Below are positions 98 to 42,535 of a stretch of DNA of 46,500 nt, piece by piece. A program made the position numbers and the translations under genes. Source of the stretch: a virus (lineage: Duplodnaviria; Heunggongvirae; Uroviricota; Caudoviricetes); IMG/VR virus record IMGVR_UViG_2718218452_000013; one strand, 5' to 3'. Numbering within the stretch: position 1 is the first letter of the stretch; every line of letters begins with the position of its first letter. The notes under the pieces are model-generated. The model ran no database searches, was not told the origin of the DNA, and was given only the letters and a program-made list of their open reading frames with translations.

Positions 98-673
98 CTA
101 CGGTAGGGCTGGCCATTCAATATCCGGTGCAGTTGATGTATCAACACGGTTCAGCAACACCCGATACTTTTTCCAGGCTTCCAGCAACAAGGTTTCTTCC
201 TCCGTTGCGATCTCCAGATCCACAGCATCCTGAAGCGGCGCAATATGCTCACTGGCTACCTGCATCAGGCTGTTTTTTGTTTCTTCCGCCTCCCGGATCC
301 GGAACAGTTTTTCTGCTTCCGTATCCTTCACCCAGGCTGTGCCGTTCCACTTCTGATATTCCCCTCCCGGCGATAACCAGGTAACATTTTCCGGTAACGG
401 ACCGAGTTCAGAAATAAATAACGCGTCGCCGGAAGCCACGTCATAAACCGTTTTACCCCGATGATCTTCAACGAGATGCCACGATGCCTCATCACTGTTG
501 AAAACAGCCACGAAGCCTGCCGGAATATCTGGCGGTGCAATATCGATACTGTTTGCTGGCAGACCTGTATGAGGCGGAATATATGCGTCACCTTCACCAA
601 TAAATTCATTAGTTCCTGCCAGCAGATTATAAATTTTTATGGTCCGTGGTTGTTCACTCATTCTGAATGCCAT
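98..673 (-). CDS. tfa: tail fiber assembly protein Tfa
   Basis: 191-aa ORF beginning [18 protein letters not shown], recalled as lambda Tfa; start overlaps the stf stop codon. Confidence 0.85.
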
Positions 674-3593
674 TATGCAAGCCTCACAATGTAGTTAAAT
701 GCGATGTTTTTGACAGTGTTTTCCGCGTTACCAGCAGCGTTAACGGTGATGGTGTGTCCATGTGAGCCAATCGCAACAGAGTGCGTATGAGCACCAATAC
801 CGACAGTATGTGCGTGAGCACCTGCAGATGCAGCTGTGCCGCTGACACTATGAGTGTGCGCTCCTGCAGCACTTGTATTCACACTGGCCGCAGACACTAC
901 CTTATGTACTGACCCATTTTGTGACCACTGGCTGACTGCTGATGCGCCTGTGACACTATGAGTATGGTTTCCGGCACTTGCGGCTGTACCGCTCACACTG
1001 TGCGTATGCGCCCCGGTGTTATTCGTGGATTTAGTGCCGTAATCAAACGACGATGTGGTTTTCGTCCCCAAATCCGTACTGGATGCACTGGCGCTGTGGG
1101 TGTGCGATTTAATGCCGTCCTGTTCCTGAGACAATACGGCCCGACCACTGGCAGGTTTGCCCTTAATCGTCCAGCCACGCATATCAGGGATCACGCCTGA
1201 CGGATAAGCGGTTGCAAGTTTCGGGTAAGCGGATTTGTCAAAAGTCTGCCCCTGCATCAGGGCATAACCAGACGGAACGGTATCTGATGGCCACGGGATT
1301 GGTGCGCCAGGCGGATAAAACTGCTCTGATGGTGTATAGAGTGAATAAACTGTACCGTCCGTTAACCCTTCCGGCTTATTAGCAGAATATGCTGGTGACG
1401 TATGAATAGTCACGCTGGCATTACTGGTATAATCCCATTGAATATTTACACCAGTCGCATAATTTCCGATTGCAACGTAAATATCGTAAGTATCACCAGA
1501 TGTATTGACCCAGGCAAAATTTGTAAACCCTGTCGATGTGCGCTGCCATAAAGCACCAGTAATCCCCTTCGGATTACCATTACCTGCACGCAAAACAAGT
1601 TCAGATATACCTGCCTGTTGAGGTGACCCCACGTTAAATCCCGCGCCACCAATCAACGTAATTGAAACAACAGAACTCGCCTGTGGCATGGTTACCGTTG
1701 CTAATTTGAACCAACCAGCACCACCGCTGAATGACATTGTTGTTGAGTTAAGCGTACCAATATCTTTCGGCGTCAGTGTTATATCCGCTGAAAGCGCCTT
1801 ACCATTCACCTTACGGGCAGAAGGTACCCGACCATTCGCATTATCATTAGCTGCTTTCACTGCTTTCGGTGTCGCGGCAAGCGTTTCAGATGCGCTGTTG
1901 GTTGCACTACTGAGCTGGACAATTCCTTTTTGTGCTGTCGTAGCGTCCTGAGCAGTATATTTCCCGTTAGCAAGGTCATAGGCTGCCTTTACCGACTTTG
2001 GCGTTGCCGCCAGCATTTCAGATGTGCTGTTGGTCGCGCTGCTGAGCTGAACTATCCCTTTCTGTGCTGTCGTTGCATCCTGTGCGGTGTATTTCCCGTT
2101 AGCCAGCTCATACGCGGCCTTAACGGCTTTTGGCGTTGCCGCCAGTGACTCGGAAGTGCTGTTAGTCGCACTGCTGAGCTGTACTATCCCCTTTTTCGTC
2201 GTGCTCGCATCCTCAAGCGCCACGGCGGATGCAATATCCTCTGCCCGTTTTGCCGCTGTCTCGGCGCGCGTTGCCGCGGATTCCGCCGTACTTTTGCTCT
2301 GAGCTGCCGCCGTCGCACTGCCAGCTGCCTCTGTCGCCTTCGTGGATGCCGTCGTGGCGCTGCCCTTTGCTGCTGACGCCTGTCTGGTCGCCTCATCTTT
2401 TGAAGCAGACGCAGATGATGCCGATGACGCCGCCGAACTGGCGGACGATGCGGCAGCCGTTTTTGAGGATTCTGCGCTGGTTTCCGACGCTTTCGCGTTC
2501 GTCTCGGATGTCTTCGCTGCGGAAGCAGACCTCGCTGCTGCGCTGGCCTGTTCAGTGGCTTCGCCAGCCTTCGTTGTGGCTGTTGAAGCGGACGATGCGG
2601 CGCTTTCTGCCGATTTTCCGGCAGCGGTGGCACTGGCTGAGGCCTGCCCGGCACTTGTTGACGCGGCACTGGCAGACGACGCAGCCGCTGTTTTTGAGCC
2701 TGCCGCAGCTGAGGCGCTCTGTCCCGCTGCCGTCTCAGAAGACCTGGCGTTCGTCTCGGACGTTTTTGCCGCCTTCGCGGAATTTGCTGCCGCCGTTGCC
2801 GAGGAAGCTGCGCTACTGGCGCTCGAGGATGCGTTCGTTTCTGATGATTTTGCCGCCTCTTTTGAAGCCGACGCATCCCGGGCTGAGGTGGCAGCTTCTG
2901 ACGCTTTCGTGGTCGCGGTGGATGCAGAAGTGGCGGCTGATTGTTGTGACGCTGCAGCATTCGTTCTGACGTTTTCGCGGCAGCGGCACTGGTAGCTGCC
3001 GCGCTTTTTGAGGACTCTGCAGCGGCAGCACTTTTTTCCGCTTCAGTGGCCTTTGTTGATGCCGTTCCTGCGCTGGAAGACGCTGACTGAGCCGACGAAG
3101 CGGCCTGTCCGGCTGACGTGCTGGCTGCACGTGCTGAATCTGCAGCATCAGTCGCATGGGTTGCCGCCTCACGGGCAGATGTGCCGGCATCACTGGCTGA
3201 CTTCTTCGCGGCTGCCGTGTTCTGTGCCACCACGGACGCGTTACGCGCCACCTCTTCCACCATCTGTTCAAAACGGCGCAGTGCCTCCGGACGGGCATCA
3301 TCCTCCGTCATGGCACCGAGAAAATCATTCAGCGTACCCGGCTGAGAATCTTCATACACGGTGATGGTCCCGGCATGTGACGGCGGGAATCCTTCCACCA
3401 ACAGAATAACGCTGTACTGACCGTACTCAACGTCCATGCTGTAACGCCCGGCTTCATCCGGATTTTCTGAGGCCAGCGTGTTCACCACCACCGTGGTGCT
3501 GTTACGTTTTGCTTTCAGCTGGATTGTGCAGTTCTGTACCGGTTTTCCTGTGCCGTCTTTCAGTACACCTGAAATCTTTACTGCCATATTCAC
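673..3593 (-). pseudogene. stf: side tail fiber Stf, reading frame broken by a 1-nt frameshift near 2963-2966
   Basis: N-terminal about 205 codons (MAVKISGVLKDGTGKPVQNC..., lambda Stf-like) run from 3593 in one frame; the Ala/Ser/Thr-rich repeat region and C-terminal His-rich (GAHTHS) fibre tip continue to 673 in another frame. Hand translation shows ...AAAAKTSE then a shift at plus-strand gttc (TT where TTT would keep frame). Confidence 0.65.
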
Positions 3594-3596
3594 CCC

Positions 3597-3625
3597 ACAA
3601 AAAAGCCCGCCTGAACCGGCGGGCT
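3597..3625 (-). terminator. rho-independent terminator downstream of lom
   Basis: minus-strand hairpin agcccgcc/ggcgggct followed by a U-run. Confidence 0.5.
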
Positions 3626-3651
3626 GTCATAACACTGTGTTACCTGGCTAA

Positions 3652-4251
3652 TCAGAACTTATAACCGACACCCACGATGAAACCGTCAGTGCGCCAGTCG
3701 CCACTGCCGGAGCCTTCATAAGCAATATCAATGGCCACGGATTCGGTCGGGTTAAACTGCACGCCAGCTCCCCACGCCAGAGACGTGTTGCTGTGGCGAC
3801 CGTCATCACTTCCGGTCAGCACGTCGTGCGTTTTCCCCTTGTTGTCAGTTACGCGGAGATAATCCCCGGAGAAAGTCGACACACGGCTGTAAGCCATACC
3901 CGCCATCGCATACGCGCTGAACCATTCATTCACGCGCACAGACGGCCCCACCATCACGCTGAACCAGCGGTTACGCACGGAATCTTCATGCCAGCGGGTA
4001 TCGCTGTAACGGGTAAGCTGGCGATTCTTGTCTCCTGCATAGCTGAACGACGTCACCATCCCCAGTGTGTCCGTAAACTCATAACGGTATTTCACGTTAA
4101 TCCCGTTCAGTTCATCGCTGCCAGGAACGTTCGTCGAGACATGAAGATACCCCGCGCTCAGCGTGGACTGATGTTCAGACGCCCATGCAGGCGCACCGGA
4201 TACGGCCAGACAAATGGCTGCGGACAAAATGGCGGCATAAAGTTTACGCAT
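3652..4251 (-). CDS. lom: outer membrane protein Lom (Ail/OmpX family moron)
   Basis: 199-aa ORF with signal peptide [24 protein letters not shown] and beta-barrel-like body, recalled as lambda Lom. Confidence 0.9.
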
Positions 4252-4274
4252 AATTACCTCTCGCTTTTCTGCAA

Positions 4275-4299
4275 TAAAAAAGGCGCCATTTCTGGCGCC
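4275..4299 (-). terminator. rho-independent terminator between J and lom
   Basis: minus-strand hairpin ggcgcc-agaaat-ggcgcc followed by a U-run, immediately upstream of the lom RBS. Confidence 0.5.
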
Positions 4300-4318
4300 C
4301 GTATATGGGTTATAAAAT

Positions 4319-7300
4319 TCAGCTGATACTGATGCCTGCGGTGGCTTTCTTCATCACCACAACCAGCAAATCGCTGATACTTGCTGTGGGATACCAGTTA
4401 TTCACTAGCCATGCTGATACCGAAAACTCCAGCGTCATGTGACCGTGACCGGCAGGCATATCAATAACGCCACTGTAAATCAGCGTATTATCCAGCGCGG
4501 TACGGTTATAAATTTCAGCACCGTTTTTCCGCACTATCAGACGGCATGAGGAGTAAATATCAGTATGCTCTCTCTCATGCTTAGCGCCACTGAATGCCAC
4601 CGCCGGAATAACAATCTGCCGGTCAAACGGCTGATCGTCATAAACCCTGACGGTAATGGTCCCTGATGGCCACCGCTCCGGTGCCCGGGAGTCCCGCGGA
4701 AAAGCCTTACCCACTGTTTTGACTATATCGCCTTCAATCTGGTTGGCTGACAGTTTCCCCTTAATCTGACAGTTCTCATTAATTGTGACATTGTTGAGCG
4801 TCCCGGCGTTCGCATTCACACTGCCACTGATATCTGCATTTTTAGCGGTCAGCTTTCCGTCCGGTGTCAGGGAAAATGCCGGAGGATTACCGCCGCTGGT
4901 AATGGTGGGAGCCGTCAGGCGCTTCAGGAACACGTCGTTCATGAATATCTGGTTGCCCTGCGCCACAAACATCGGCGTTTCATTCCCGTTTGCCGGGTCA
5001 ATAAACGCGATACGATTGGCGGCAACCAGAAACTGGCTCAGTTTGCCTTCCTCCGCGTCCTCCATGCTGAGGCCAATACCCGCGACATAATGTTTGCCGT
5101 CTTTGGTCTGCTCAATTTTGACGCCCCACATGGCATTCCACTTATCGTTGGCGTCCTTCCACTCTTTCGAAAACTCCTCCAGTCTGCTGGCGTTATCCTC
5201 CGTCAGGTCGACTTTTTCCAGCAACTCCTTGCCGAGATGGGATTCGGTTATCTGGCCTTTGAAAAAATCCAGATAGCCGGATGCATCATCACTCGGCTGG
5301 CCAACAGCCTCCACAAATGCCGATTTGCCAACGGTGTTCACACTGCGGATGTAAAAATAATAATCATGGTCCGGTTTGATATTGATACTGGCGGCTATCC
5401 AGTACAGCGCCGTGCCAAGATAGCGGGCTGTGGTTTCAACCTGCCTGATATCGGTAATCCGCGTTTCCGAGAACCAGAACTCAAACTGTACCGTCGGGTC
5501 ATAAACCGCAAGATGCGGCGTGGCGGTTATCTGAAAATAGCCCGGCGTCAGCTCAATCTGTGACGGCGCTGCCGGTGCGGCAATCCTGAACGATACCGAT
5601 GCCGGATCGCCCTGCTGCCCCCACGCATTTACTGCCCGGACTGTCAGCCTGTAGTTCCCCGGCGCCAGTTGTGTGAAGCGGTATGTGGTTTCCGCCGTCC
5701 GGGCTGTGCTGACCAGCCGCTCACTGCCGTCATCCGCGGCCACGGTCAGGCGAAGCATGAAACTCACGCCCTTCACCACCTTCGGCGTATCCCAGCGGGC
5801 CAGTACCTGATACTCCCCGCTGTCTGCGGTGACTTCGGCAGTCAGGTGCTGCACTGCTGGCGGCGTGACACCATTCACCGTGCCGCTCTGGTCGCCGTCA
5901 AAGTGCGCCCCGTTATCCACGATGGCTTCTTTTTCCGGTACATGCTGCACGGCGGTGATAGCATACGTGCCGTCATCGTTCTCACGGATACTCACACAGC
6001 GGAACAGGCGCTGGCGCAACGTCGGCAACTTCAGCCCCCACACGCTGTATTCAGCAACACCGTCAGGAACACGGCTCACTTTCACCTTCACGCCGTCGGT
6101 GACGGACTGAACCTCCACGCTGATCGGATTGCCACTTCCGTCAACCAGGCTTATCAGCGTGGTACCGGAGGATGGCAGCGTGATTTCACGGTCGAGCGTC
6201 AGCGTCCGGGTCTGGCTGTTTACCGCCAGCACGCGCCCGCCGGTGCTGATACCGGCATAGTCATCATCACAGATTTCAATGACATCGCCCGGCACATGGC
6301 GAAGCCCTTCGGCACCCACGCTGAAGTCCACGGTCTGCGTTTCCAGCAGTTCTGTTTTAATCAGCCACAGCCCGGCGCGGTGTGCCTGCCCCCGGCTGGT
6401 ACAGCCAAAGGCATCCATCTTCGTGACGTTACGACCGTAACGGGCAATGGCCTGCGTGTCCTCCACAAGCTCTGTCGCCGTCTCCCAGCCGTTATTCGGG
6501 TCAATCCAGTTCACCTCAACGGCATTATGGCGGTCCTTCAGGGCGCTGAAGCTGTAGCGGAACGGCGCGCCATCATCCGGCATCACCACATTACTGCGGT
6601 TATAGGTCCACACCTTATCCGACGGTCGGTCCTGCACGAACGTCAGCGTCTGCCCGTTCCATACCGGCATACAGCGCATCGCCGAGCAGAAATCACTGAG
6701 CACATCCCACGCCTTGCGCTGTGTGGTCAGGTACGCATTACAGGTGATGCGCGGCTCCGTGCCACCAGAGCCGTCCGGCACCGACTGGTCGCAGTACTGG
6801 CCGATGACATACAGCGCCCATTTATCCACATCCGCTGCACCAAGACGTTTCCCCATGCCATAACGCGGATGGGTCAGCATATCCCACAGACACCAGGCTA
6901 TGTTGTTGCTGTATGCCGGTTTAAGCGTTCCGTCCCAGATACCGCTGTATGTGCGTTTTTCCGGGTCGTAATTCGACGGCACCTGCAGAATGCGTCCGCG
7001 CAGATGATAATTACGGCTCACCTGCTGGCTGCCGAACTGCTCCGAATCCACCTGTACGCCGACCAGTGCCGTGTTCGGGTAGCCCTGTTTCACATCGATG
7101 ATTTCGGTGTATGACGACCAGAGCGTTTTGTTCTGCAGCTGGTCTGTGGTGCTGTCCGGCGTCATTCTGCGCATCCGGATATTAAACGGGCGCGGCGGCA
7201 GGTTATCCACCACCACCGAGGCCAGATACTGCGAGGTGGTTTTGCCCTTAATGGTGATGTCTTTTTCCGTCACCCAGCCACCATTACGCTGTATCTGAAC

Positions 7301-7714
7301 CAGCAGGCGAACTTCCGACGGATTCCGGTCCCCCTTTGAGGTGGTTTCCACCAGTGCCTGCACACCGAAGGTAAAGCGCAGTCGGTCGATGTTTGCCGAC
7401 GTGATGGCGCGGGTGATCGGCGTGTCATATTTCACTTCTGTACCGAGCACCGTCTCGGAGCCGGAGGATTCAAATCCCTCCGGCGGTGTCTGCTCCTGCT
7501 CACCGGCCCGGAACACCACCGTGACGCCGGATATATTGGTATTCCCCTCACTGTCCAGCACCGGCGTACTGTTCAGCAGCACGCTTTTTAATCCATCCAC
7601 CGGACCTTCAACCGGCCCTTCGCTGATGGCATCGATCACACTCAGCAGCTGCGTGGACTTCAGGTTGTCCTTCGCTTCGCGCGGGGTATGCCCCTTACTG
7701 CTGCCTTTACCCAT
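4319..7714 (-). CDS. J: tail tip host-specificity protein J, full length, lambda-type receptor-binding C-terminus
   Basis: 1131-aa [23 protein letters not shown]... ending ...[42 protein letters not shown], recalled as lambda J. Confidence 0.95.
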
Positions 7715-7774
7715 TCCTCACGCTCCATAAACGATAAAACCGCCCGGAGGCGGTTTCACATAAAACATTTTGCA

Positions 7775-8422
7775 TCAGCGACCAATCACCACAACCTGAC
7801 CACCATCCCCTTCGTCTGCCGTGCTGATCTCCTGAGAAACCACACGTGACCCCACGCGCATTTCACCGTACAGAACAGGCAGAACATTGCCCTGGGCAAC
7901 CATGTTATCCAGTGAGGAGAAATAGGTGTTCTGTTTGCCGTTATCTGTACTGGCTGCCGTGGGCGTCCTGGCTTTCGGTGCCAGCATCTGCGCCACTCCG
8001 CCCAGGATCATACTGGCCCCTGCCGCATACATGCCCGATACAGCCGCGGCCCCCAGCCAGCCCACAGGGTTCCACCATGCCACCGCAATCAGCGCCGCCC
8101 CAAGCACCACCTGAAACACACCGCCACTTTTAGCTCCCGCCAGACGCGGCACGATGTGGATCACGGCACCATTTGCCAGCGGCTCATTAAGACGGGCAGA
8201 TAATTCATTTTCGCCTGCATCACGCCCGGCAATGCGCACCTGATACCAGCCCTCATTCAGTTTCTGACGAAACACCGGGAGCTGTGTGGCCAGTGCCCGG
8301 ATGGCTTCAGCCCCCGTTTTCACACGAAGGTCGATACGGCGACCAAATCGTTGCAAATCCCCGTAAAGGCAGATGCGTGCCATGCCCGGTGACGCCAGAG
8401 GGAGTGTGTGCGTCGCTGCCAT
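7775..8422 (-). CDS. I: tail tip assembly protein I
   Basis: 215-aa ORF MAATHTLPLASPGMARICLYGDLQRFGRRIDLRVKTG, lambda I-like; overlaps K 3' end. Confidence 0.85.
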   Translation of the reverse strand: MAATHTLPLASPGMARICLYGDLQRFGRRIDLRVKTGAEAIRALATQLPVFRQKLNEGWYQVRIAGRDAGENELSARLNEPLANGAVIHIVPRLAGAKSGGVFQVVLGAALIAVAWWNPVGWLGAAAVSGMYAAGASMILGGVAQMLAPKARTPTAASTDNGKQNTYFSSLDNMVAQGNVLPVLYGEMRVGSRVVSQEISTADEGDGGQVVVIGR

Positions 8423-9063
8423 TTGTCGGTGTACCTCTCTCGTTTACTCAGTTGTTCAGGAATATGGTGCAGCAGCTCGCCGTCGCCACAGTAAATGGCG
8501 GCATGATTCGGCACCGATGAACCAAAACAGCACAGCAGCACATCGCCCGGCTGGGCCGCTGACAACGGCACCTGATACAACCCCGTTGCCTCCATATTAT
8601 CCAGATAGAGATTCTGGCCGTGACGCCACCAGTCATCCCCGCGATGAAAATCCGGCATCTCAATTCCCGCCAGATGGTAAGCGTCCCGGAACAGCGTGTA
8701 ACAGTCCGTCACCCCGTGCTCAAAGCGCCGCCCGGTGAGATGCGGCACACAGCGGAATTTATGAATCGCCCCCCGGCAGACCAGCCACCACGGCAAATCA
8801 CTCTGCACCTGCAGCCGCCGGTCGGCCTCACTCAGCCAGGGCAGACCACCGGGGTGGCTGTGGACCAGCGCCACAATCTCTCCCTGCATTTCTGCACTCA
8901 GCCAGTCCTCCGGCGACATCCGGAAATACGCCTCCGGCTCACCAGAGATATTCACGCAGGGAAAATATCTTTCCCCCTCCGGTGTTCTCACCACGAAGCC
9001 GCACGACTCCGCTGGCGCACATCGCCGGGCGTGCGCCAGAATCGCTGATTCTGTCTCTGTCAT
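8320..9063 (-). CDS. K: tail tip assembly protein K
   Basis: ORF with ATG at 9063 (MTETESAILAHARRCAPAESCGF...), HSHP metal motif and Cys/His peptidase-like C-terminus, lambda K-like by position and sequence. Confidence 0.8.
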   Translation of the reverse strand: MTETESAILAHARRCAPAESCGFVVRTPEGERYFPCVNISGEPEAYFRMSPEDWLSAEMQGEIVALVHSHPGGLPWLSEADRRLQVQSDLPWWLVCRGAIHKFRCVPHLTGRRFEHGVTDCYTLFRDAYHLAGIEMPDFHRGDDWWRHGQNLYLDNMEATGLYQVPLSAAQPGDVLLCCFGSSVPNHAAIYCGDGELLHHIPEQLSKRERYTDKWQRRTHSLWRHRAWHASAFTGICNDLVAVSTFV

Positions 9064-9068
9064 GGGAT

Positions 9069-9767
9069 TCACTGCGAAAGTTTGTTAATGGAAAGGAAGC
9101 CGCCAAAGTTGCCGACGTTATTGCGAAACTTACAGCCGCTCAGGCATTTGCTGCATTTATCCTTCGTGATATCGGACGTCGGCTGATCATATTCATCCGC
9201 GACCGCCGGACCGTGATAACCGCACTCGTCACCGCGATAGGTCCAGGTGCAGGTGTTGGCCAGCATGATGCGCCCCGGAAAAACGGCACCGTCCGTTTCC
9301 GTCGGCGTGGACAGTACAAAAGAGGCACTCACCGCGCTCAGTTCGCTGCACTGCTCGATGCGCCAGCGGCTGATCACCTCCTGCTCCGGATCGGCGTAAC
9401 TGTTTCCGTTGACGAAGTTCACCGCATCCAGAAAACGGGCGTAAACCTTACGCCGGACCACCGTTCCGCCGACCAGACTCTGCATATCTTCCGCCATCCC
9501 GGTGACCATACCGTACAGGTTAGAAACCGTCAGCGTGGGGCGCGTACTGGTGCCTTTGCCATTCAGTTCAAAACCGCTCCCCTGAATGGGATACGGCTGA
9601 TACTGTCGCCCCTGCCAGGTGACCGGCTCACCTTTTTCGTTCTGCTCATTACAGAAAAAATAACGTTCTCCACCGACCTCTGTCAGGTCGATTTCCCAGA
9701 GCACCACGCTGGCCGACTGCTCCGCACGGGTGCATTCATTCAGTGTTTCCTGCCGGATATCCTGCAT
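9069..9767 (-). CDS. L: tail tip protein L
   Basis: 232-aa ORF MQDIRQETLNECTRAEQSASVVLWEIDLTEVGGERYFF, lambda L-like. Confidence 0.9.
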   Translation of the reverse strand: MQDIRQETLNECTRAEQSASVVLWEIDLTEVGGERYFFCNEQNEKGEPVTWQGRQYQPYPIQGSGFELNGKGTSTRPTLTVSNLYGMVTGMAEDMQSLVGGTVVRRKVYARFLDAVNFVNGNSYADPEQEVISRWRIEQCSELSAVSASFVLSTPTETDGAVFPGRIMLANTCTWTYRGDECGYHGPAVADEYDQPTSDITKDKCSKCLSGCKFRNNVGNFGGFLSINKLSQ

Positions 9768-10095
9768 CAGTTCACCACCTGTTCAAACTCTGCGCTGAAC
9801 TCAACACGCAGCATACTGACCCGCGACGACCATTTTGCGCAGGTCACCTTTATCTGCCGCCACTCATAAGGCGGCGTCCACAGAAAGGCTTTCCAGCCCC
9901 CGTGCTCTTCCAGAAACGACTCCAGTACCGTGGCCTCCTCACGGGGGACAGAAAGCGTCACGCTGTACGTTTTCAGGTTGGCATTCAGCCCGGCAGGCGC
10001 TCGCTGAACAGCCATCACCAAAGCGCACCTTTCTTACAGAAGGGGCCGAAGCCACATCCATACCGGGTTTCACTTTCCAGCGGAAGGTTTTCATC
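9767..10095 (-). pseudogene. M: tail tip protein M, frameshifted
   Basis: ATG at 10095 encodes MKTFRWKVKPGMDVASAPSVRKVRFGDG then leaves frame and hits a stop after about 51 codons; the remaining M sequence (QRAPAGLNANLKTYSVTLSV...EFEQVVN) is in a different frame (ORF 9767..10021). Confidence 0.6.
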
Positions 10096-11317
10096 GTCCA
10101 CCTCCGGAGAACAGACCACCATCACGCATCTGCCCGGTCACAACATCCATTGCCGCCTTACGGGCTACGTCATAAACAGCCTTCAGCGCCTGTGGCCCTA
10201 TCTGACCGTTCGTGCCGTCGTTGTTAATCACCACATGGTTATTCTGCTCAAACGTCCCGGACGCCTGCGACCGACTGTCCGCCATGCTGCCCGGTGTACC
10301 GACATAACCGCCGGTGGCATAGCCGCGCATCAGCCGGTAAAGATTCCCCACGCCAATCCGGCTGGTTGCCTCCTTCGTGAAGACAAACTCACCACGGTGA
10401 ACAATCCCCGCTGGCTCATATTTGCCGCCGGTTCCCGTAAATCCTCCGGTTGCAAAATGGAATTTCGCCGCAGCGGCCTGAATGGCTGTACCGCCTGACG
10501 CGGATGCGCCGCCACCAACAGCCCCGCCAATGGCGCTGCCGATACTCCCGACAATCCCCACCATTGCCTGCTTAAGCAGAATTTCTGTCATCATGGACAG
10601 CACGGAACGGGTGAAGCTGCGCCAGTTCTGCTCACTGCCGGTCAGCATCGCCGCCATATTCTGTGCAATACCATCAAAGGTCTGCGTGGCTGCACTTTTT
10701 ACCTGCGACATACTGTCCGTGGCGCTCTCTTCCCACTCACTCCAGCCGGACTTCAGGCCTGCCATCCAGTTCCCGCGAAGCTGGTCTTCAGCCGCCCAGG
10801 TCTTTTTCTGCTCTGACATGACGTTATTCAGCGCCAGCGGATTATCGCCATACTGTTCCTTCAGGCGCTGTTCCGTGGCTTCCCGTTCTGCCTGCCGGTC
10901 AGTCAGCCCCCGGCTTTTCGCATCAATGGCGGCCCGTTTTGCCCGTTGCTGCTGTGCGAATTTATCCGCCTGCTGCGCCAGCGCGTTCAGGCGCTCCTGA
11001 TACGTAACCTTGTCGCCAAGTGCAGCCAGCTGGCGTTTGTACTCCAGCGTCTCATCTTTATGCGCCAGCAGGGATTTCTCCTGTGCAGACAGCTGGCGAC
11101 GTTGCGCCGCCTCCTCCAGTACCGCGAACTGACTCTCCGCCTTCCACAAATCCCGGCGCTGCTGGCTGATTTTCTCATTTGCTCCGGCATGCTTCTCCAG
11201 CGTCCGGAGTTCTGCCTGAAGCGTCAGCAGGGCAGCATGAGCACTGTCTTCCTGACGATCGCCCGCAGACACCTTCACGCCGGACTGTTTCGGCTTTTTC
11301 AGCGTCGCTTCATAATG

Positions 11318-19015
<7,698 letters not shown>

Positions 19016-34670: not shown

Positions 34671-35666
34671 TCAGGCCAGCACACCAATCGCCAGTGCGCG
34701 ATCGATAAAACGAAATATCAGCTCCAGCTGGGAGCCATACTTCTCTTCAAATGCCACGGTATCCGCATGCAGTTCGTCGTGGTGTTTTCTGCACAAAGGC
34801 AGCACAAAAAGGTCATGCGCTTTTGTACCCATTCCACCCTGACCATGGCCTATCAGATGATGCGGATCATCAGCTGGCTTTCCACAACATGCACACGGCT
34901 GTGTCTTAACCCAGCGCGTGTACTTTTCATTAACCCAGCGGCGACGTTTTGGGCGTAACATAAAAGACTCCGGCGACTCCGGATCCACTTTCAGCGCCAG
35001 CACCTTTTTCGCCTTATCCTGGATGATGCTGGTGGCAGGAACCGAAGGCACAAGGTCACTTTCCCGGGTAACAGACGGCACAACAGGCTTCGGTAATCTC
35101 AGTGCCTTACGGGCTGCACTTTCCGGTAAGGCATCCGCCAGATCATTACGAATCAGCCACCAGCACAGTTCCGGCATTGTCACAACGTGACTGTCATCAA
35201 AACCGAGATCCCGACGCACAACAGACAACACCCAGCGGGCACAGTTATCCGTTGCCATTGATTCCAGCCGTTCCGTGAACTGATCGCGCAGCTGGTTATC
35301 GCAGTGCCAGCACAGACGGATTGCACCCGGAGCGTGTCGCATTGTGGTCATGTTCTCGCTGTGCCAGTCGGAATGAGGCCACTGGCAGCCTTTTTCACGA
35401 AGTAACCAGCTTTCAAGACATTCCACGCCACCAGCACGACGGATCACTGCCTCATTGCGGAACACGGCCCGAACGGCAGGATCATCCGCCAGCGGTTGTG
35501 ATGCCGCCGGAACGGCACCACTGGCGAAAGATGAATAACGCTCCGGCTCAGGCTCCAGCAGGACACGCCCCTGCATAAACAGGGGCATCAGCTCTGAACC
35601 TGGCCTGAACAATACGATCCCCATACGCGGGGCAATTTCAGGGGTCAGTAGTGCTCTCACGGTCAC
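34671..35666 (-). CDS. DUF968-family protein (YdfU-like) with C-terminal HNH-like Cys/His motif
   Basis: 331-aa ORF; C-terminal ...[43 protein letters not shown]. Confidence 0.7.
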
Positions 35667-42041: not shown

Positions 42042-42352
42042 TGCTGCCGTTAATTCAGCGATCACATTGAATACTCTTATTGTTGTTGGGGATATCCAGA
42101 TTAACCGAATCCTTGTTGTTGGGGAATAACCAGGTCCACCTCGCCTGATGTGGCTAAAAGCAGGCACATAACAGCTAAGTATTTTCAACCAGAGAGAATC
42201 CTTAGCGTTGTGGTGAATGCGGCTCAGCGCACGCGGGTTAAGGTTGAGGCTGACAGTCGACCTTCTGTGGATACCCACCCGCCTGGTGTGCAACCTTCGC
42301 CAGGCACCGGGAGGCACCCGGCACCACAACTTTATGCTGTGTGTAGTCCTGG

Positions 42353-42398
42353 CGGTACCAGTTTGTACCCTTGCTTCCGGCTGGTACCGTCCTTTTTT
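42353..42398 (+). terminator. rho-independent terminator (tL1-like) on the + strand
   Basis: cggtaccag ... ctggtaccg stem followed by tcctttttt. Confidence 0.55.
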
Positions 42399-42535
42399 GC
42401 AAAACAGAGAAGAGCATCACCGGACGACGGGCTCATAACCCAATCCATCCGGGCGGCTGCCACCGCAGGTGTTCTTCTCTGTTTTGTGGAGAAACCAACC
42501 GACCTTGCAGGGTCGATATGATGAGGAGCAGCAAA

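Follow-up and report, generated by a model that had tools for sequence, protein, structure and literature searches.

The side tail fiber gene (stf) of a lambda-like prophage is split by the loss of a single base from a short homopolymer. Very probably, judging from comparison of the sequences, this is a genuine inherited loss-of-function mutation that has spread in a bovine lineage of Escherichia coli and has been copied to a second prophage. The window, meaning the whole 46,500-nucleotide stretch of DNA that was analyzed (IMG/VR virus record IMGVR_UViG_2718218452_000013), has the tail-fiber end of the prophage at its left end, on the minus strand in the order J-lom-stf-tfa, and the annotation of related genomes places the prophage at the argU/DLP12 integration site. 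The proposed course of events is that one A of the coding-strand AAA was lost from stf of the prophage at this site, presumably through replication slippage, and that the mutated allele would have been inherited within a bovine-associated E. coli lineage. Homologous recombination would have copied the broken allele into a second, different prophage of one chromosome.

The frame break in stf

When the minus strand is translated in all three frames, stf (673..3587) is seen to shift frame after codon 208. The frame of the start codon reads as far as ...AAAAKTSE and then runs through 259 out-of-frame codons to a stop at 2184, and a second minus-strand frame carries the native protein uninterrupted to the stop codon at 673-675, as the original prediction had described. 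That prediction placed the shift at plus-strand GTTC, 2963-2966; GTTC is what the window reads at these positions, and the single missing base aligns exactly there. The start codon had been taken to be a GTG at 3593, but annotation puts it at the ATG at 3587.

The nearest intact comparison is the stf gene of E. coli O103:H2 12009, from a prophage at the same argU site with the same neighboring genes. It has 99.9% DNA identity to stf of the window, reads GAAACG at the site, and encodes a single 971-amino acid protein, annotated as intact by the NCBI pipeline PGAP (WP_000279114.1) with an ATG start that corresponds to window position 3587. An alignment of the window, E. coli C7, OkiPb01675, and O103:H2 12009 contains four substitutions and one gap, and this single-base gap at GAAACG is the sole indel relative to the intact ortholog. 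The deletion site lies between codons E208 and T209 (2964..2965), as located by the alignment, by reading the plus strand directly, and by allele-specific searches with a 42-mer and a 43-mer. At 2964-2965 the plus strand reads TT in place of the TTT of intact alleles, the coding strand has GAACG in place of GAAACG, and the intact GTCAGAAACGAATG becomes GTCAGAACGAATG in the window, C7, and OkiPb01675. A repaired reading frame of about 970 codons had been expected from one additional T; insertion of one A on the coding strand in silico gives 2916 nucleotides, with 971 codons plus a stop and zero internal stops. The repaired protein differs from WP_000279114.1 only by A919V. The alignment and the repair together bear out the claim that stf is split by loss of one homopolymer base.

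Because of the 1-nt deletion, stf is a pseudogene, with a repaired product of 971 amino acids. PGAP labels the gene "frameshifted" in both C7 and OkiPb01675; public annotation thus already flags this exact allele in two RefSeq genomes. No single uninterrupted open reading frame (ORF) of the window encodes both the collar domain and the tip of the fiber. The ORF that begins at the stf start (2184..3587, minus strand) encodes 467 amino acids, of which 208 are native and 259 are out of frame; the out-of-frame tail, with 78 Arg, 42 Pro, and 40 Gln residues, has a pI of about 12. The remainder of the native frame (673..2961, minus strand), which covers residues 210-971 and the stop codon, is cut off from the start codon, and its first ATG, GTG, or TTG is a GTG at 2223. 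Exact look-ups of the 467-amino acid and 469-amino acid frameshift products gave nothing on record.

The Ala/Ser-rich shaft region of stf is open in several frames on both strands (2229-2995 on the plus strand and 2184-3040 on the minus strand). Plus-strand ORFs opposite the shaft include, for example, one of 246 and one of 217 amino acids, and an old lambda annotation, "orf206b", spans a similar stretch on the strand opposite stf. The long out-of-frame and opposite-strand ORFs are probably by-products of the GC-rich Ala/Ser codon composition and not genes.

Domains of the repaired fiber and neighboring genes

The identification of the gene as stf is confirmed by the J-lom-stf-tfa order and by Pfam matches of the repaired protein to phage_tail_N, Phage_fiber_2 (three copies), Collar, and Phage_fiber. 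The neighboring genes are all on the minus strand: J (4319..7714) and lom (3652..4251) were taken from the ORF list, while tfa (98..673), encoding the tail fiber assembly chaperone, was recognized by annotation and Pfam (PF02413, E=1.3e-43). The tfa gene is intact, and its start overlaps the stop of stf.

The N-terminal tail-attachment (collar) domain, residues 1-134 (3186..3587, minus strand; PF08400, E=7.5e-72), is still in frame with the start codon. Residues 1-94 match the chain of Ur-lambda Stf in the tail-tip and collar structures PDB 9E7M/9MGH with E=4e-52 (PMC12617516). Downstream of this domain the repaired protein has an Ala/Ser/Thr-rich shaft. Three repeats had been noticed in the fiber, and they correspond to three tandem Phage_fiber_2 repeats of 44 amino acids at residues 462-593 (1810..2205, minus strand; PF03406 in three stretches, E=8.6e-52), with the repeats beginning at residues 466, 510, and 554 when delimited by sequence. 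Residues 539-596 match tail fiber protein S of phage Mu, for which structures have been solved.

The C-terminal region, residues 744-971 (676..1359, minus strand), is a receptor-binding tip homologous to gp37 of phage T4; it aligns end to end with the gp37 tip (PDB 2XGF chain A, E=2.9e-88), and Pfam finds PF07484 (Collar) at residues 761-808 as well as PF03335 (Phage_fiber). The original prediction was right that the tip carries HxH motifs, while its list of three variants fell short: a sequence scan and the 2XGF alignment give seven, at H829, H861, H875, H911, H925, H934, and H943 (754..1104, minus strand), which span residues 829 to 945. In T4 gp37 such motifs coordinate seven iron ions, with octahedral coordination of Fe2+ by the trimer (PMC11705849). 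All seven motifs of the repaired protein are in register with those of gp37, which predicts an iron-binding needle. Since the HxH motifs are iron-binding in T4 gp37, the HxH tip is a textbook property of the family and not a new one. The likeness is confined to the tip, as gp37 belongs to the long tail fiber of a myovirus and its upstream shaft is unrelated to that of Stf. With a PF08400 collar domain, a gene at the end of the tail cluster in the order J-lom-stf-tfa, and a gp37-like tip, the repaired protein is, by sequence, a standard lambda-type side tail fiber.

The split gene had also been likened to that of lambda PaPa, with the break at a different position, and this comparison holds. 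The lambda PaPa gene is the same gene in the same J-lom-stf-tfa context, and in each phage one base of a short homopolymer has been lost, which leaves an N-terminal ORF that ends in an out-of-frame tail and an orphan C-terminal frame. However, lambda reads an intact GAAACG at codons 208-209 and shifts at a C-run after codon 395 (NRKA|HWTV), whereas the window shifts at an A-run at codon 208/209 and not at the PaPa site. The two frameshifts are independent events. The proteins also differ in length (971 amino acids in the window and 774 in lambda Stf), and of the two only the window protein has the three Phage_fiber_2 repeats and an additional central region.

Distribution and inheritance of the deletion allele

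The searches used a 42-mer and a 43-mer specific to the two alleles, so placed that any megablast seed must span the deletion site. Of the 5426 complete E. coli genomes searched, 1192 have the intact allele and two, C7 and OkiPb01675, have the deletion allele. In IMG/VR viral contigs the intact allele was found at least 120 times and the deletion allele zero times, and scans for the deletion allele found none in JGI metagenome contigs or in GTDB species-representative genomes. The stf segment of the window is 100% identical to that of C7, which is from a cow (NZ_CP010240.1), and OkiPb01675, from bovine feces in Okinawa, differs from it by one base. Dozens of other complete genomes match stf at 99.8-99.9% and are one base longer.

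These counts bear on whether two genes, an N-terminal adaptor and a C-terminal fiber, might be the normal state in this lineage, which had been named as one outcome that would overturn the prediction. The two halves of stf in lambda PaPa were long annotated as orf-401 and orf-314, which lends such an arrangement a precedent, but that split arose by mutation in the laboratory (PMC12617516). In the window, about 270 codons of the C-terminal frame pass after the break before a start codon is reached, and the intact form is one base away and about 600 times commoner. The one-gene form is the norm, being intact in the 1192 genomes and the viral contigs, so that the reading as two separate genes is refuted and almost certainly wrong.

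Some full-length Stf might instead be made by recoding, either through a programmed -1 shift of the ribosome or through slippage during transcription. In favor of this, the native frame past the break is the -1 frame, and neither frame is closed over the site, but the sequence at the site (GCG AAA ACG TCA GAA CGA) has no slippery heptamer of the form X XXY YYZ at or near it, nor a long A/T run that would permit polymerase slippage. Relatives almost universally have one ORF (1192 one-frame genomes and 2 split ones), and the split arrangement is therefore not conserved. Programmed frameshifting was rejected on sequence grounds, with neither a slippery heptamer nor a conserved two-frame layout, and recoding of either kind is extremely improbable.

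A more practical concern is that the missing base is a sequencing or assembly error, such as a long-read homopolymer under-call in a gene that is truly intact. Errors of this kind do seem to occur in stf. A protein search turned up about twenty further Stf N-termini truncated by shifts elsewhere, mostly in A6 and A5 runs. Loci sharing the same 516-amino acid C-terminal ORF call (262 blocks indexed) likewise lose single bases in other homopolymer runs of stf, namely A6 (nt 551), A5 (nt 579 and 822), T4 (nt 264), C3 (nt 707), and G3 (nt 1224). J and tfa are shattered as well at several such loci. Fragmentation beside a broken stf is typical of indel-ridden assemblies, and therefore suggests long-read indel errors in those cases; as a class, single-base homopolymer deletions in stf are often artefacts. 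The deletion in the window is of another kind, however. The run is only three bases long, and 1192 genomes read AAA in the same context. The window, C7, and OkiPb01675 are three independent sequences that all have the identical deletion, and C7 and OkiPb01675 each have it at two loci. An error is accordingly a highly unlikely explanation.

The independence of the three carriers can be seen in the rest of the prophage. C7 and OkiPb01675 have the deletion in common, yet 31 substitutions and an indel of 470 bp separate their prophages. Direct comparison shows that the window differs from both of them outside stf, and no full match to window 2900-12000 is present among complete E. coli genomes, which makes the window a third carrier, independent of the other two.

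The deletion junction occurs twice in C7 and twice in OkiPb01675, and the second place was mapped in C7. An exact look-up of the 516-amino acid C-terminal ORF located this copy at 3,594,582-3,597,496 of the C7 chromosome. The lambdoid prophage in question is not the one at argU: it occupies the Qin site, between ydfJ and the tail genes, and has an Arc/Ant insertion. PGAP labels this copy "frameshifted" as well. The two C7 copies of stf have one difference in 2915 nucleotides (99.97% identical), while the genes that flank them are more divergent between the two prophages: 94.5% identical for tfa, 98.3% for lom, and 96.2% for J. This pattern is that of a gene-conversion tract that carried the broken allele across. 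Near-identical stf between divergent flanks argues that the deletion is real and was copied between the prophages by recombination; a read error would not give rise to such a pattern.

Possible rearrangement and mosaicism elsewhere in the window

The tape-measure gene H holds a 6015-bp insertion (11317-17331), which consists of two tandem partial copies of a C7-type segment containing the N-terminus of lom and J. Over 2725 nucleotides the two copies share 100% identity, and they are likewise 100% identical to J of C7. The region contains three fusion ORFs on the minus strand (10091..11509, 11576..14800, and 14867..18607, from the ORF list), with three in-frame junctions: H(1-426)::J(313-1132), Lom(1-64)::J(124-1132), and Lom(1-64)::H(447-853). 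One breakpoint in lom is common to two of these junctions, and microhomology at the junctions is at most a few bases. None of the three junctions was found in the 5426 complete E. coli genomes, and exact look-ups of the three fusion ORFs and their proteins found none on record. The insertion is either a real rearrangement, in which case the prophage would be tail-defective, or a misassembly.

A second difference from C7 is at 4048-7054, which includes the N-terminus of lom and the C-terminal two thirds of J. This segment is a divergent allele: compared with C7 it shows 306 differences, and J is about 95% identical. The remaining tail cluster is identical to that of C7. The exact 1131-amino acid J and 199-amino acid Lom proteins occur in lambdoid prophages that also have genes for NleB, NleH/OspG, Cif, and NleG, which are type III effectors. 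The host-range module seems to have been exchanged here in a mosaic fashion.

Two smaller observations concern other parts of the window. The 470 bp at 35071-35540 are kept in the window and OkiPb01675 and deleted in C7, where a DUF968 gene is annotated as partial. For a small hypothetical gene by yfdP (about 42210-42521, plus strand), the gene at the corresponding position of C7 and of OkiPb01675 carries the label "frameshifted".

Consequences for the phage and its lineage

Translation from the stf start would yield 208 native residues, including the collar domain, followed by 259 meaningless and very basic residues. The shaft, the three fiber repeats, and the gp37-like tip would be disconnected from the tail-attachment part of the protein. 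Particles from the window prophage would then be without side fibers and would adsorb through the central J fiber only. This expectation follows the analogy with lambda PaPa, which lacks side fibers, adsorbs via J alone, and is a precedent for a viable phage without them (PMC12617516). Should the tape-measure gene truly contain the 6-kb insertion, the prophage could build no tails, and the stf lesion would have no consequence of its own.

Whether the loss of fibers might have been favored is a separate question. A real mutation under positive selection, with slower adsorption being of advantage in dense or biofilm-like habitats, for example, would fit the retention of the broken allele and its spread to two prophages of one chromosome. 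It would also fit the reportedly lower fitness of lambda with high Stf-mediated adsorption in biofilm-like conditions (PMC2762979). However, recombination between co-resident prophages copies neutral sequence equally well, the allele is present in just 2 of 5426 genomes, and the tape-measure gene of the window prophage appears disrupted. Positive selection for fiber loss is consequently very unlikely. The somewhat broader proposal that the broken gene was kept and copied because either a fiber-less particle or the collar-only Stf fragment was favored in the bovine lineage is only slightly less doubtful. If it were true, favored fiber loss would parallel, in nature, the selection in the laboratory that produced lambda PaPa.

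The preferred reading remains that of an inherited loss-of-function mutation, and as such it is ordinary prophage tail-fiber decay. For annotation, this means that stf should be called one pseudogene and not two genes. For the biology of these prophages, the homogenization of a pseudogene allele between the two C7 prophages shows that recombination among co-resident lambdoid prophages spreads defects as easily as functions.
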